Origin: Bacteriovoracaceae bacterium
GTDB taxonomy: Bacteria; Bdellovibrionota; Bacteriovoracia; Bacteriovoracales; Bacteriovoracaceae
Direction: 5' to 3'
Assembly (NCBI GenBank): GCA_018649885.1
Contig: JABIHA010000149.1
Coordinates: forward strand, 1 to 53,696
DNA: 53,696 bases
Positions 12,243 to 43,525 of this stretch are shown one piece after another (the stretch's first letter is position 1; the number at the start of each line of letters is the position of its first letter). Made by a program: the position numbers and the translations under genes. Under the pieces are notes generated by a model that saw nothing but the letters and a program-made list of their open reading frames with translations, was not told the DNA's origin and made no database searches.

Positions 12243-12323
12243 TGCCCCGGGGGAGACTTGAACTCCCACGCCCGAAAGCAGTGGATTTTGAATCCACCGT
12301 GTCTACCATTCCACCACCAGGGC
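12240..12323 (-). tRNA. tRNA-Leu(CAA)
   Basis: GCCCTGG acceptor stem; TGGTAGAC D loop; GTGGA-TTCAAAA-TCCAC anticodon arm; long variable arm; GTTCAAGTC T loop; encoded CCA. Confidence 0.97.
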
Positions 12324-33085: not shown

Positions 33086-34504
33086 TCATCCTTCAAAGAT
33101 AGAGGATTTTTTTCTGATTGCAGTACTCAAGATTAATCCACAAAATGTGGCGATGATTCCAATGTACAGATCGTCAATGGCAGCCACTATTCCCTCTTCT
33201 GGAAGAAAGCGCCAAATAGTAGTGAAAACTACTCCGATGCTACAAGTAAAAACAAATTGTTTATCGCTAATTTTGCCAGGAAAAAGATGCCCAAGGATGA
33301 CTGGAAAGAGCAGGCAAGATGCACTATAGCTTCCCAAGGTTTTCCAGACAGCTTTTATATCACCACTAAAAGCAGTGCTTAAAACGGCTGCTAATAATCC
33401 TGAAAAAATGACCGCACAGTAGTGGGCCATTTTCTTTGTGCGGAACCTTTTGGGTAAAATATCATAAGACAGCGTGGTGCCTGCAATAAATAAATATGAG
33501 TCTAAGGTCGATAAGATTGTGGCAAGAAAACCTGCAAGGACAAATCCTCTAAGCCCACTTGGCAGAATTGATGTAGAAAATATTAAATAGGCCTTGTCAG
33601 AGGGAAGGCCTGGCATTACAGCTCTTGCATATAGTGCTCCACCTGTTGTGCATATATCAAAGAGAAACCAAACGAAAGTTGAGATAAGAATTCCCTTCTT
33701 GGCCACTTCTGGTGATTTGGCAGCAAAACATCGTTGATAAAAGTTGGGATCAACTAAGGTTGAAAGAGCAATAAAACCCCATACTAATGTAGTCGCAATG
33801 CTATTTCCTCCAAGTGCTGAAAAGTGGGCCTCTGGTAGATTGGTCTTGAGAAAACCAATCCCTCCATATTTCCCCACTGCAAAAAATAAAACTAGTACGA
33901 CTCCAGCACACATCACAAAAAATTGAACAATGTCTGAGAAAACCACTGCTCTCAGACCTCCTGTTAGTGAGTAGGCCACAACAATTAAGGTCCCGAGAAA
34001 TACCATCACGGTTAAATTTCCTCCAAATAGAGCTTGTAGAAACAAACCAAGGGAGATGGCATAAGCAATGGGGACAACATTAAAAAAGTTAAAAATAGCA
34101 CTCACTTTCTCAGCTCGTGGGCCAAACATTTTCCCCATCAAGTCTGGCAGTGTAACGGCCTGGTATTTAGAAATGCGATTAACCATAAAAAAAGCAAAGA
34201 AGATGTAGGTGAAATACCAAAAAACTCCTTGAGTCAGAAAATTGTAAATACCATAGTCATAGGCAATTTGAGTGACACCAAAGATTCCTCCGTACCAAGT
34301 GGCCACAAGGGTGGCAATGAAAAGGGGGAGGGTTAGTTTTCGACCCATCAGTAGGATATCTAGTAGGCCATCTTCTTCATCTGAATCAGGAGACTTCGAT
34401 TTTTTTAGTTGTCCGTAGATAATAGCGGCAAATGTCGAAAGAAGTACTAGAAAGAAGACGATCCAATCCAGTGTGGTAATTTGTGAAATAATTTGTGAGC
34501 TCAT
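33086..34504 (-). CDS. Sodium:solute symporter, probable thiamine/precursor transporter (ThiV-like)
   Basis: ATW.GG, GGLRAVVFSD.VQ, YQRCFAAKS; upstream TPP riboswitch; start at 34504 (alternative 34510). Confidence 0.85.
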   Translation of the reverse strand: MSSQIISQITTLDWIVFFLVLLSTFAAIIYGQLKKSKSPDSDEEDGLLDILLMGRKLTLPLFIATLVATWYGGIFGVTQIAYDYGIYNFLTQGVFWYFTYIFFAFFMVNRISKYQAVTLPDLMGKMFGPRAEKVSAIFNFFNVVPIAYAISLGLFLQALFGGNLTVMVFLGTLIVVAYSLTGGLRAVVFSDIVQFFVMCAGVVLVLFFAVGKYGGIGFLKTNLPEAHFSALGGNSIATTLVWGFIALSTLVDPNFYQRCFAAKSPEVAKKGILISTFVWFLFDICTTGGALYARAVMPGLPSDKAYLIFSTSILPSGLRGFVLAGFLATILSTLDSYLFIAGTTLSYDILPKRFRTKKMAHYCAVIFSGLLAAVLSTAFSGDIKAVWKTLGSYSASCLLFPVILGHLFPGKISDKQFVFTCSIGVVFTTIWRFLPEEGIVAAIDDLYIGIIATFCGLILSTAIRKKSSIFEG

Positions 34505-34584
34505 AACCATTCCCTACGCAGAAACTAATCTGATCAGGTTCAACGAGTTTATCTCAGCCTCATTTTGAGGCACCCCGAGGTCCG
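34505..34584 (-). ncRNA. TPP riboswitch
   Basis: Minus strand: CGGGGTGCCTCAAAATGAGGCTGAGATAAACTCGTTGAACCTGATCAGATTAGTTTCTGCGTAGGGA, containing GCTGAGA, ACCTGATC and GCGTAGGGA. Confidence 0.92.
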
Positions 34585-34697
34585 TGGATATTATATGCAT
34601 GATAAAATCATACGTGTCAATAATTTGAATTAATTATTCAAAATCTGTATCTACTACAATCCTTTAAGAGAATAGTTGATCATGGTATATTAATACC

Positions 34698-40284: not shown

Positions 40285-40743
40285 TTAGGGCGTTATATCT
40301 TTTGAAAGTGGATTTGCTAAGGAAATGATAGTTTCCGTAGAGCTAATTTCCTTAATGGCCTGAAGTTTTTTGATTAAAAAATTTTGAAGTTCATCAATTG
40401 ATTTGGTCATTACTTTAATGAAAAGACCGTAGTTACCAGTGGTGTAGTGAACTTCAATGACTTCATCAAAGAGTTTGAGGTTATTTAAGACCAGCGGATA
40501 GTCTTTTGCTGTTTTTAAAATGATTCCAATATAGCAAGTGACATCAAGACCAAGTTTCTTGTGATCAATCATGACTTTAGTGCCGGTAATTATGCCGGCC
40601 TCTTTCATTTTATCAACACGAACATGGATGGTCCCGCTGGAAACATTGAACTTACGTGCCAGCTCTAAAAATGGAGTTCTACCATTACGCATTAGGTCGA
40701 CAAGAATACTTTTATCTAAATCATCAAGTTTTTCGTTCTGCAT
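40285..40743 (-). CDS. asnC: Lrp/AsnC family regulator, AsnC-like
   Basis: LDDLD..IL, GTIHVRV.KM..AGII, YTTG.Y..FIKVM..SID.LQ, STET.I; start 40743 after GAGGTG. Confidence 0.85.
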   Translation of the reverse strand: MQNEKLDDLDKSILVDLMRNGRTPFLELARKFNVSSGTIHVRVDKMKEAGIITGTKVMIDHKKLGLDVTCYIGIILKTAKDYPLVLNNLKLFDEVIEVHYTTGNYGLFIKVMTKSIDELQNFLIKKLQAIKEISSTETIISLANPLSKDITP

Positions 40744-40882
40744 TATCACCTCGCCAAGAAACAAATTATCAACAAAATCACAAAAGTTCTATGAATTTAT
40801 CAATTAAAAGCCTGATGCTGCGCTTTGTTTTCTAATTTTCGGAGTTATATTCGTTGAATGCAAACGCAATCTTGACCTAGTC

Positions 40883-41073: not shown

Positions 41074-41851
41074 ATCCATTTTCCATAAATTGTTGAGCCT
41101 GCAAATAATTTAAAACCGTATTTGAATATTGATGGTGAGAGCTCTTGGTGTATTTTACCTTAGTATAGATTTGCGCCAAGTTAGTAACCCCCTCCTTTTC
41201 AATTAGCTTTTTTAACTCAGGTAGTGAATTGTATCTCTCCCACCCAGTTTTCTCTTTCCGTGCGTACATATTGAGTATCTCAACATTCGTATAATCTTGG
41301 TAAGTTTCATGGTGAACAATTGCCTCTAGAGGGAGTCTGTCTCTTTTGTCTGGAACCTCATCGGGGTAACCTATAGCAAAGCCCACAACAGGTATAACAT
41401 GGGGAGGAAGATTGAGGGCATCCCCAATATTTTCACAGTTGGCCAGTGTTGTTCCAAGGTAGCAAACCCCTAGCCCTTCACCTTCTGCTGCCAGTGCCAC
41501 GTTTTGGGAAACTAGCGTTGCATCGATTGTGGCAATCATAAAGCTCATAAAATTATCAAAATTGGCCGGTGCCTGTCTTTGCTCTAACCATCTTCTCATT
41601 CTGTGGAAATCCCCGCAAAATGTTATGAGTGCAGGGGCCTCCACCACCATTTCTTGGTTGAAGTGTAGGGGGAGGAGTTTTTGTTTTAAGGAAGGTTCAG
41701 TGGTTACAATGATGGAATAGGCTTGCATATTCCCGGAGGTGGAGGCCCTAGTCCCTGCACTTAGTATTTTTTCTAATATCTTTGGATCTATATTTTTCTT
41801 CTTGTATTTTCTTATAGATCGATGGTTTTCAATAAAGTCAATTGTACTCAT
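41072..41851 (-). CDS. Nitroreductase, NfsA/FRP-like
   Basis: HRSIRKY, ASTSGNMQAYSII, GLG.CY.G, IGYP…RLP; start 41851 after GGAG. Confidence 0.88.
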   Translation of the reverse strand: MSTIDFIENHRSIRKYKKKNIDPKILEKILSAGTRASTSGNMQAYSIIVTTEPSLKQKLLPLHFNQEMVVEAPALITFCGDFHRMRRWLEQRQAPANFDNFMSFMIATIDATLVSQNVALAAEGEGLGVCYLGTTLANCENIGDALNLPPHVIPVVGFAIGYPDEVPDKRDRLPLEAIVHHETYQDYTNVEILNMYARKEKTGWERYNSLPELKKLIEKEGVTNLAQIYTKVKYTKSSHHQYSNTVLNYLQAQQFMENG

Positions 41852-42046
41852 AGCGTGTTCTCCAGAGGTAAATACCCACATTTTATAGATTGGCCAAAAG
41901 GATAAAAAAAGTGAATATTTCGAACTTATTGGTTCCCTATTGGAAACAATAAGAAAAGATATAAAATGTTCTGACATTTGGCTGACAGTATTGATTCAAA
42001 AATAGAATTGTGTCAGTATCTGGATAAGATTACCGATAAGGGAAAT

Positions 42047-42124
42047 ATGAAAACATCACGAAGACCACATTCCACTTTTAAATTTGATGATGATAGCTGG
42101 GATTATTTAATGGCCTTCGTTTGA
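42047..42124 (+). CDS. Asp-rich leader peptide MKTSRRPHSTFKFDDDSWDYLMAFV
   Basis: AAGGGA SD; GAT GAT GAT at 42086-42094 and GAT at 42101; precedes the attenuator and aspS. Confidence 0.75.
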   Translation: MKTSRRPHSTFKFDDDSWDYLMAFV

Positions 42125-42181
42125 GCGAAATAAAAATGATAATTAAACGAAGGCCTTGGTATTACCAAGGCTTTTTTTTTT
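42112..42181 (+). promoter_or_regulatory. Transcription attenuator (antiterminator/terminator)
   Basis: GGCCTTCGTTT (42112-42122) pairs with AAACGAAGGCC (42145-42155), which overlaps terminator GCCTTGGT-ATT-ACCAAGGC-T10 (42153-42181). Confidence 0.8.
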
Positions 42182-42190
42182 GGAGGAAAG

Positions 42191-43525
42191 ATGAAATTGA
42201 TTGGTGAAAGTAAAGTTAGTGAGCTAAGTGAATTAAAACGAAATCAGGGTGCTTACTTCGATCAGTCAATTGATTTTTCTGGCACAGTGGGGGGAGTAAG
42301 AGATTTAAAAAAGTTTGCTTTTGTTCAGCTGCTTACTGAAATTGGCCTAGTTCAGCTAGTTCTAGAAAGTGAAAAATTTAAAGAGGCGGTAATTAAAATA
42401 GGTGGCGCTATCTCTGTTAGTGCCATAGTTAAAAAAGCTAAGCTGAAAGATCAATTCCTTTCTCTAAAAGAGGTAGAGTTTTTTGTAACGCATTTGGAAG
42501 TAAACTCTATTCCAAATTCTGCTGCTCCTATGGACTTAACAAAGAAAGAATTAATGATAGGAAATGATGTTAAATTTGACCTGAGAATGATTTCTCTTAG
42601 GCATCCAAAAGAAGCAGCTATTTTTTCTATCCAAAGTGGAATTACATCTGGGTTTAGAAAGTACTTTGAAAAGATGGGACTAACAGAAATTAGAACTCCC
42701 AAAATCGTAGCTGCTGGAGCTGAGGGGGGAGCAAATATATTTAAACTTAACTATTTTGGAAAGGATGCTTTTCTGACCCAAAGTCCTCAATTTTACAAAG
42801 AATTTTGTACCGCTGCTTTTGGGGGCATTTATGAAATAGCTCCCGTTTTTAGGGCCGAAAAGCATAATACAAGTAGGCATTTGAGTGAATACACTTCTGT
42901 GGATGTTGAGATTGCTCACATTAAAAGCTTCTACGATATAATGGAGTTTGAGGTCGGCGCCCTAAGATTTGTGATGGGCCATCTCCGTCAAAACCACTCA
43001 CATCAATTAGAGATTATGGGAATAGAATTAAAAGAAATTGGAGATATTCCATCCATCACTTTCAAAGAGGCCAAAGAAGTCTTGAAAAGGGAAGGAATTG
43101 AATCTGGAGAGCCGAGTGATCTTTCTCCTGAAGAAGAAAAAGGACTTTGTGCATTTGTCTTAGAGAAGTATGACTCTGAACTAGTTTTTGTCACTCATTA
43201 CCCAACTTCAAAAAGGCCTTTTTATGCAATGGAGTCGAGTTTAAATAGTGAGGAGACTGATAGCTTTGACCTTCTTTACAAAGGTGTTGAAATTACAACT
43301 GGAGGGCAGAGGATACATGAGCTTGCGAGCTTAACTCAAAAGATGAAAAAAAGATCAATGGATATTGAAAGCTTTGAATTTTTCACCAATGCTCACAAAT
43401 ATGGACTTCCCCCGCACGGAGGTTTTGGACTAGGTCTTGAGAGATTTACTCAAAAGCTATTAAATCTTGATAGCGTAAAGCTTGCAACGATGTTTCCAAG
43501 AGATGTGACAAGGCTTTTTCCCTAG
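42191..43525 (+). CDS. aspS: Archaeal-type aspartyl-tRNA synthetase, probably non-discriminating
   Basis: 444 aa without GAD insertion; EGGA..F, QSPQFYK, FRAE.HNTSRHL.E, GGQRIH, PPHGGFGLGLER. Confidence 0.9.
   Translation: MKLIGESKVSELSELKRNQGAYFDQSIDFSGTVGGVRDLKKFAFVQLLTEIGLVQLVLESEKFKEAVIKIGGAISVSAIVKKAKLKDQFLSLKEVEFFVTHLEVNSIPNSAAPMDLTKKELMIGNDVKFDLRMISLRHPKEAAIFSIQSGITSGFRKYFEKMGLTEIRTPKIVAAGAEGGANIFKLNYFGKDAFLTQSPQFYKEFCTAAFGGIYEIAPVFRAEKHNTSRHLSEYTSVDVEIAHIKSFYDIMEFEVGALRFVMGHLRQNHSHQLEIMGIELKEIGDIPSITFKEAKEVLKREGIESGEPSDLSPEEEKGLCAFVLEKYDSELVFVTHYPTSKRPFYAMESSLNSEETDSFDLLYKGVEITTGGQRIHELASLTQKMKKRSMDIESFEFFTNAHKYGLPPHGGFGLGLERFTQKLLNLDSVKLATMFPRDVTRLFP

Follow-up and report, generated by a model that had tools for sequence, protein, structure and literature searches.

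What controls an aspartyl-tRNA synthetase (AspRS) gene whose ribosome-binding site is abutted by an intrinsic terminator, with a short open reading frame (ORF) rich in aspartate (Asp) codons just in front? The question is raised by a 53,696-nt stretch of DNA (hereafter the window) from a marine predatory bacterium of the Bacteriovoracaceae (contig JABIHA010000149.1 of assembly GCA_018649885.1), in which a first-pass annotation, made from the letters alone, had proposed an Asp-codon leader peptide and a transcription attenuator. Our analysis indicates that the element is probably a ribosome-mediated leader-peptide transcription attenuator that senses charged tRNA-Asp and controls the downstream gene, here called aspS2. 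Direct reading of the sequence located all elements of the proposed switch at the positions assigned to them. In order along the DNA they are, with region 1 added:

42038–42042, plus strand: ribosome-binding-like purine stretch of the leader ORF, read from the sequence, ending 4 nt 5′ of the start codon
42047–42124, plus strand: leader ORF of 25 codons plus a TGA stop (42122–42124), encoding protein P0001, from the ORF list and translation
about 42053–42068, plus strand: region 1, the strand able to pair with region 2 (a protector, or anti-antiterminator), from co-transcriptional folds and duplex energy
42086–42094, plus strand: three consecutive Asp codons, putatively regulatory, codons 14–16 of the leader ORF
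42101–42103, plus strand: fourth Asp codon, codon 19 of the leader ORF
42112–42124, plus strand: region 2, the antiterminator 5′ arm, holding the last four sense codons and the stop of the leader ORF, from folds
42143–42155, plus strand: region 3, the antiterminator 3′ arm, whose last 7 nt (42149–42155) double as the 5′ foot of the terminator stem, from folds
42149–42181, plus strand: intrinsic terminator, with a hairpin at 42149–42175 (core 42153–42171) and ten U at 42172–42181, from the terminator scan
42182–42186, plus strand: ribosome-binding site of aspS2, immediately 3′ of the U-run, read from the sequence
42191–43525, plus strand: aspS2, encoding a 444-aa archaeal-type AspRS (P0002; NF003483, Pfam tRNA-synt_2, 1n9w)

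Translation confirmed the 25-codon ORF with its own Shine-Dalgarno (SD) stretch and its run of three GAT codons plus a fourth: codons 14, 15, 16 and 19 are all T-ending, and the ORF contains neither asparagine (Asn) nor cysteine (Cys) codons. The perfect 11-bp complement between 42112–42122 and 42145–42155 is also real, and grows to 13 bp (42112–42124 with 42143–42155) in the minimum-energy fold. The helix was said to overlap a strong terminator ending at the SD of the synthetase gene; the terminator scan returned 42149–42175 (12 pairs, five of them G-C) followed by a T-run to 42181, and the SD starts at 42182. Two terminator-like sites were seen in 700 bases where 0.4 were expected. When both conformers were folded, as the first-pass annotation had suggested, the antiterminator segment gave −19.4 kcal/mol and the terminator hairpin alone −15.9 kcal/mol.

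From these computed parts and energies we infer a switch with the following course. Transcription would start upstream of 42038 and a ribosome would translate the 25-codon leader. With Asp-tRNA plentiful, the ribosome would reach the stop codon (42122–42124) and cover region 2 (42112–42124); region 3 would then stay with region 4, the terminator would form and RNA polymerase would halt before the ribosome-binding site of aspS2. With Asp-tRNA scarce, the ribosome would stall at 42086–42094 or 42101–42103, upstream of region 2. Region 2, thus freed, would form the 13-bp helix with region 3, stripping the foot of the terminator stem and permitting read-through into aspS2; more AspRS would be made and charging would be restored.

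Folds in which the ribosome footprint was masked behave largely as this logic predicts (pair probabilities are given as means). A ribosome with the stop codon in its A site (42110–42137 masked) leaves the terminator core at 1.00 and the antiterminator at 0.00; one with the third Asp codon there (42077–42104 masked) leaves the antiterminator at 0.81 and the terminator core at 0.59. The corresponding figures for free RNA are 0.82 and 0.40.

Region 1, which the first-pass annotation did not mention, supplies the remaining part of a trp-like arrangement. In co-transcriptional folds it pairs with region 2 before region 3 has been synthesized, and the duplex (−11.0 kcal/mol, where shuffles average −5.3; p 0.01) would hold region 2 until then. 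By analogy with trp, RNA that is not being translated would tend to terminate. The geometry differs from that of trp in one respect: region 1 lies upstream of the regulatory codons (17 nt from the first Asp codon), not on them. A ribosome stalled at the Asp codons would sit inside the 1:2 loop and might thereby block the 1:2 pairing.

Could such an arrangement have arisen by chance? Triple Asp codons occur five times on the two strands of the window, against 1.59 expected. The whole 5.4-Mb genome (10.9 Mb over both strands), with its 742 strict terminator-like sites, was scanned for closed ORFs of 10–50 codons whose stop lies 15–50 nt 5′ of a terminator and which carry a homotriplet within the last 22 codons. 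Eleven matches were returned: four for lysine, four for leucine, one each for methionine and serine, and one for Asp. The sole Asp match is the window leader, and it adjoins an AspRS gene: the control codons are cognate to the enzyme, as had been remarked at the outset. Nine of the ten other matches have no gene within 200 nt downstream and resemble ordinary 3′ terminators.

A wider view comes from relatives. Orthologues of AspRS2 (E 1e-60 or better) are found in 17 of 237 Bacteriovoracaceae genomes, from 10 of 69 genera; AspRS2 is an accessory gene in the family. A comparison of related upstream regions, of the sort proposed earlier as a check and extended to all 17 loci, recovered the Asp-run ORF and a terminator stem with compensatory changes. 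Specifically, an ORF with 2–6 Asp codons and, after it, a terminator a short way 5′ of the aspS2 ribosome-binding site are present at 10 of the 17 loci (genomes G000, G041, G147, G168, G117, G116, G024, G065 (whose sequence is that of locus L031), G067 and G069). The strict terminator scan found eight of these ten terminators; those of L191 (bulged stem) and L031 (five-T run) were accepted by eye. The leader ORF can be picked by position alone: in all ten cases the Asp-rich ORF is the longest of those that stop 26–41 nt before the terminator, and the other frames at these loci yield ORFs with at most one Asp. A quick tree divides the ten leader-bearing genes into two subclades of five, and the seven leaderless genes into one subclade of five plus a basal pair.

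Conservation and co-variation were computed separately for the two hairpins. A MAFFT alignment of the ten leaders (A1) was used for the terminator, in the stem of which 85.7% of cells are paired and three of seven core pairs have changed on both sides. The antiterminator strands fell in shifted columns, and duplex tests were made sequence by sequence instead. At every one of the ten loci the 3′ part of the leader, which runs from its last Asp codon to slightly beyond the stop, shows complementarity to the terminator 5′ region (p 0 to 0.03 against 500 shuffles). When each leader was set against each terminator in a 10 × 10 matrix, a leader's own partner came first in five cases, second in three and third in two; own pairs average −17.2 kcal/mol and the others −11.6, and none of 10,000 permutations was as low. 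The terminator stems differ among loci, yet the leader strand tracks its own terminator: it is the switch that is conserved and not merely its parts.

The geometry is also maintained. In all ten leaders the antiterminator 5′ arm ends between −6 and +7 nt relative to the first base of the stop codon, and it begins 4–24 nt past the last Asp codon and 19–43 nt past the first; the Asp clusters lie upstream of region 2 in each. Pairing of regions 1 and 2 recurs in the relatives L194 (p 0.004) and L191 (p 0.002) and, more weakly, in L192 and L193 (0.1 each); in the second subclade it is without significance (p 0.27–0.61). The distance from region 1 to the first Asp codon is 15–19 nt in the window and its three closest relatives, and 5 nt in L193. 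The subclade of the window holds a complete trp-type set of 1:2, 2:3 and 3:4 pairings.

Several observations weigh against an Asp-sensing attenuator. The module is missing from seven of the 17 orthologues (G023, G136, G138, G068, G049, G141 and G142), although for G068 the upstream DNA amounts to 258 nt only. The two leader-bearing subclades represent few independent events, and statistics across the ten loci overstate the case; moreover the pairing tests used mononucleotide shuffles. The whole 158-nt stretch barely beats its shuffles (z −1.62, with 14 of 200 as good). With the fourth Asp codon in the A site (42086–42113 masked) the terminator core remains at 0.95, alongside an antiterminator at 0.73. 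The overlap between terminator and antiterminator is small (7 nt, 42149–42155, with three core G-C pairs), and a shortened terminator hairpin, a remnant of 4–5 bp standing two bases off the U-run, can coexist with the antiterminator. Exclusivity therefore depends on the loss of the stem foot beside the U-run; from what is generally known of intrinsic terminators, a 4–5-bp hairpin set off from its U-run is expected to terminate poorly. The spacing between the purine stretch and the leader start codon is short (4 nt).

The position of the promoter is a further weak point. We place the transcription start upstream of 42038 by inference only: the single promoter-like site upstream on the plus strand (41940–41967) has nine of 12 matches, and among 17 sequencing runs listed, one of them RNA, the only RNA match is a 284-nt metatranscriptome contig lying inside aspS2 (42193–42476), its coverage excluding the leader. 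(Three DNA sequencing runs contained no variants of the leader.) One might then suppose that hairpin and U-run mark the 3′ end of an independent small transcript, be it the gene for a 25-residue peptide or a small RNA, and that aspS2 is expressed constitutively by read-through or from an unrecognised promoter; terminators are, after all, leaky, the promoter of the leader is a presumed one, and the truncated hairpin is compatible with the upstream helix. However, with the U-run extending to 42181 and the ribosome-binding site starting at 42182, there is no space for a promoter between terminator and gene, and a promoter scan found none there. The matching of leader to terminator and the placement of the stop, kept across ten loci, would be needless for an unrelated terminator, and the sequence of the peptide is not conserved. 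We regard a separate transcript as very unlikely. Nor does the terminator end an upstream gene, since the gene upstream of the leader, a nitroreductase, is divergent and lies on the other strand.

If the element is an attenuator, what does it sense? Asp is enriched 2.4-fold in the ten leaders (37 of 297 residues, p 7e-7). Cys enrichment exceeds that of Asp (5.5-fold, 16 of 297): Cys codons occur in seven of the ten leaders (L002, L031, L191, L193, L195, L197 and L202), often alternating with Asp codons. Serine codons are likewise enriched, and two leaders (L031/L200 and L197) have just two Asp codons. These facts also count against Asp as the signal, and they lend something to the view that the leader is a general sensor of translation speed, like those that precede antibiotic-resistance or ribosome-rescue genes, with the Asp codons incidental and read-through opened by whatever slows the ribosome on the leader; the architecture of ORF, antiterminator and terminator by itself leaves the signal unfixed. 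Set against this is the pattern of conservation: the peptide sequence diverges outside the Asp clusters, which alone are kept (at least two Asp within five codons in 10 of 10 leaders, compared with 4 of 10 for Cys and none for Asn or glutamate), and which always stand upstream of region 2. The codons are cognate to the enzyme, and an Asp triplet recurs in 68 of 77 distant homologues, described below. A speed sensor is, on this showing, unlikely.

A different possibility is that the ORF is read in another frame or not at all. One base later the Asp codons are the starts of an ORF rich in methionine, isoleucine and valine, and in the window, L191, L192 and L194 short +1-frame ORFs start in the Asp run and end near region 2. 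Their starts are preceded by no ribosome-binding stretch (by eye), in the second subclade they are missing or have scattered ends, and in clostridial leaders Asp is encoded by the alternative codon, from which no +1-frame start arises. Alternatively a protein, for example AspRS2, or a metabolite might bind the RNA without translation; some synthetases do bind their own leaders (thrS of Escherichia coli is a case). Rfam, however, returned no leader family at gathering score in the window or in 20 homologous loci, the only matches being the thiamine pyrophosphate (TPP) riboswitch and tRNAs. In an E-value search of 41800–42300 every match was sub-threshold, and the best were leader-peptide families (Phe_leader, E 0.35, 21.5 bits against a gathering score of 55; His_leader, E 1.7). 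A tRNA-Asp anticodon triplet is absent from either hairpin loop (by eye). Both variants, the shifted frame and the RNA-binding factor, strike us as most improbable.

The T-box, the other well-known means of sensing tRNA charging, found no covariance-model match: at gathering score there was none in the window or in 20 homologous loci, and at E ≤ 10 none in 41800–42300. What is present is a short ORF with a purine stretch, a cluster of cognate codons, a terminator, an antiterminator that excludes it (with the caveat of the small overlap), the expected geometry and region 1, in keeping with a leader-peptide attenuator.

Which gene would this attenuator control? The first-pass annotation took it for the aspartyl-tRNA synthetase gene, which holds as regards the enzyme; it is not, as the name aspS implied, the main gene. 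P0002 matches NF003483 (the NCBIfam model for archaeal-type AspRS, named aspartate--tRNA(Asn) ligase) with 474.4 bits over residues 24–444 (cut-off 353), and bacterial aspS models match weakly. Among solved structures P0002 is closest to the non-discriminating AspRS2 of Thermus thermophilus (1n9w, E 6.5e-87). The same genome encodes a 592-aa bacterial-type AspRS together with further class-II relatives, an asparaginyl-tRNA synthetase (AsnRS, 610 bits) and two asparagine synthetase B (AsnB) genes. Judged by sequence, then, the regulated gene is an accessory AspRS2 and not the housekeeping aspS; upstream of the latter, and of asnS, there is neither a terminator nor an Asp-rich ORF.

The name of the NF003483 model implies a partnership with GatCAB in the making of Asn-tRNA, and one published account describes a second bacterial AspRS as a rarity and links it to the synthesis of Asn together with GatCAB (PMC4206432). 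A search for GatB did not bear this out for the window genome: no match above cut-off was found there (best 20.7 bits; the genome is 92% complete), nor in any of the five other leader-bearing genomes searched (G041, G147, G168, G117 and G116). GatB is present in four of 18 sampled relatives in the family. With no GatB found, tRNA-dependent Asn synthesis, the usual reason for an archaeal-type AspRS, seems inapplicable, and the predicted role of AspRS2 is most likely that of a second AspRS for tRNA-Asp. The same result fits a leader that reads Asp only and lacks an Asn codon. For an AspRS2 without GatB, either tRNA-Asn is discriminated against or tight attenuation limits mischarging. In an alignment to solved structures, the position that we take to be decisive for tRNA discrimination in archaeal-type enzymes is a glycine, matching neither of the residues expected there, and we draw no conclusion from it.

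Some features of the family leaders deserve mention in their own right. L191 and L192 have a near-consensus promoter 5′ of the leader ORF (perfect first hexamer and 17-nt spacer, by eye), with the leader start codon about 7 nt past the second hexamer; similar spacing is seemingly found in L193, L195 and L031. In L191 and L192 the ORF may be translated from a leaderless transcript.

How widely is the element distributed? A metagenome scan for relatives returned one identical contig (L111), the rest being 39–54% identical and mostly clostridial-like. The nearest homologues outside the family are likewise clostridial, mostly from Lachnospiraceae, at 45–50% identity. We kept 80 loci, 79 of them of clostridial type; for 77 of these 79 the upstream DNA extends to 300 nt or more. 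The motif Asn/His-Arg-Asp-Asp/Asn-Asp occurs in a leader ORF at 70 of these 77, and an Asp triplet on the sense strand at 68, compared with none on the antisense strand. This Asp-leader attenuator sits 130–490 nt upstream of aspS2 (L032–L110). Its codons are nearly invariant at the nucleotide level because the Asp-codon stretch itself pairs with a downstream strand: in the consensus fold, columns 38–49 pair with 106–117 (one pair being compensatory in four sequences) and enclose a hairpin, and a covarying terminator follows, with 13 sequences compensatory at one pair. On the evidence of this fold the clostridial element is a classical attenuator with its regulatory codons in region 1, and it looks like an undescribed class widespread in Lachnospiraceae and relatives; at gathering score it matches no Rfam family.

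The clostridial and window elements have gene family, regulatory amino acid and overall logic in common. They differ in form: the clostridial one is longer, its Asp codons form region 1 and it has the extra enclosed hairpin, unlike the window element. The clostridial leader ORF ends 1–5 codons past the Asp run. No clear nucleotide homology was seen between the two leaders.

At 51 of the 77 clostridial loci the first attenuator is separated from aspS2 by a second short ORF. It opens with Met-Gly/Arg-His, and its Asp codons, two or three in number, occupy the loop of a small hairpin with a covarying stem. By eye, its 3′ end looks able to pair with sequence flanking the aspS2 ribosome-binding site, a hint of a further control step acting on translation. 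In the family, L199 (G068), which is without Asp-leader and terminator, has a 20-codon ORF about 60–120 nt upstream of aspS2. Its start resembles that of the second clostridial ORF (by eye); if real, this resemblance would point to transfer of gene and leader together.

A quick tree places the family AspRS2 among clostridial genes as one clade (support 98), sister to a Clostridiales gene, L101 (95), and well apart from the AspRS-like genes that other families in the phylum carry. This position fits a single transfer, in either direction. L101 comes from a metagenome-assembled genome; its leader, which adjoins and overlaps the start of aspS2, carries six successive Asp codons and then Asn-Asp-Asn.

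One can go further and imagine that Asp leader and aspS2 are a self-regulating spare-synthetase cassette, moved between Clostridia and marine predatory Bacteriovoracaceae, serving not amino-acid economy but rescue of the cell from attack on its housekeeping AspRS. An inhibitor (for example an aspartyl-adenylate mimic of the microcin C kind, from prey or competitors) would lower Asp-tRNA and, through the leader, turn on AspRS2, a divergent archaeal-type enzyme that the inhibitor possibly would not hit; the Cys codons beside the Asp codons in relatives might give a second input. The idea parallels the second, antibiotic-resistant synthetases that antibiotic producers carry, the sensor in this case being one for Asp. 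We consider it rather unlikely as a whole.

Setting this rescue idea aside, how does the proposed Asp-sensing attenuator compare with systems already described? Close in plan is the pheST attenuator of E. coli, in which the pheM leader peptide has cognate phenylalanine codons, and alternative hairpins lead to an intrinsic terminator. Like the window element it is a classical attenuator before a synthetase gene; it differs in that phenylalanine is sensed and a housekeeping enzyme controlled, and it has no sequence relationship to the window. Besides leader-peptide attenuators before pheST, the literature holds predictions of such elements before trpS2 and leuS of Streptomyces (Seliverstov et al. 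2005, PMC1262725, excerpts). Like the window element, these are synthetase attenuators outside the gamma-proteobacteria, and trpS2 is a second copy; they sense tryptophan or leucine, belong to Actinobacteria, and the excerpts mention no Asp case. The uORFC-8-2 motif before cysS of Rhodobacterales is predicted by comparative analysis only (Brewer et al. 2021, PMC8632094). As in the window, a short ORF with cognate codons overlaps the alternative to a terminator before the cognate synthetase gene; there the amino acid is Cys, the gene the main cysS and the hosts alpha-proteobacteria.

Histidine leader peptides have been reported before hisS paralogues in bacilli, and the same work discusses switches of sensing system between lineages, with another hisS copy under different control (Naville and Gautheret 2010, PMC2965389). 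The likeness lies in a leader peptide placed on synthetase paralogues, the difference in the sensing of histidine. One of the bacillar paralogues, hisZ, is not a synthetase in function. A T-box reportedly controls the operon for a non-discriminating AspRS and GatCAB in Clostridium acetobutylicum, work said to be that of Saad et al. in 2012 and 2013. It would resemble the window element as control at the RNA level of an extra AspRS by tRNA charging, but is said to sense uncharged tRNA directly, without a ribosome, and to serve Asn-tRNA synthesis; the window has no T-box match and its genome no GatB that we could find.

No Asp leader peptide was met in full-text literature searches (which hold few subscription journals), in agreement with the earlier remark that no characterised one was known for aspS. 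A paper of 2009 on Shewanella includes aspS in its predicted 5′ motifs, under the label ‘tRNA synthetase leader’, without naming a leader peptide. The mechanism proposed here is a textbook one; what would be new is its Asp specificity on an accessory synthetase.

The remainder of the window adds little to the question. Pfam assignments for six neighbouring genes (a Y-family polymerase, an Lrp/AsnC regulator and unknowns) have no bearing on aspS2; the Lrp/AsnC-family gene (40285–40764, minus strand) lies two genes upstream. Rfam identifies a TPP riboswitch at 34493–34587 on the minus strand (68.4 bits against a gathering score of 54.3) and a tRNA gene at 12243–12323, also on the minus strand (56.2 bits).

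The described leader cases cover tryptophan, histidine, phenylalanine, leucine, threonine, isoleucine/valine and Cys; a leader that reads Asp would extend the list, and would place the mechanism outside the classic phyla. Small ORFs and terminators of this sort escape gene callers and Rfam, which is of consequence for annotation. The natural variants (ten in the family and about 70 in clostridia) would make a test set for how codon number, spacing and helix overlap bear on sensitivity. For the Bacteriovoracaceae themselves, the element may offer a handle on why bacteria keep a second, archaeal-type AspRS, its usual role in Asn synthesis seeming here to be excluded.

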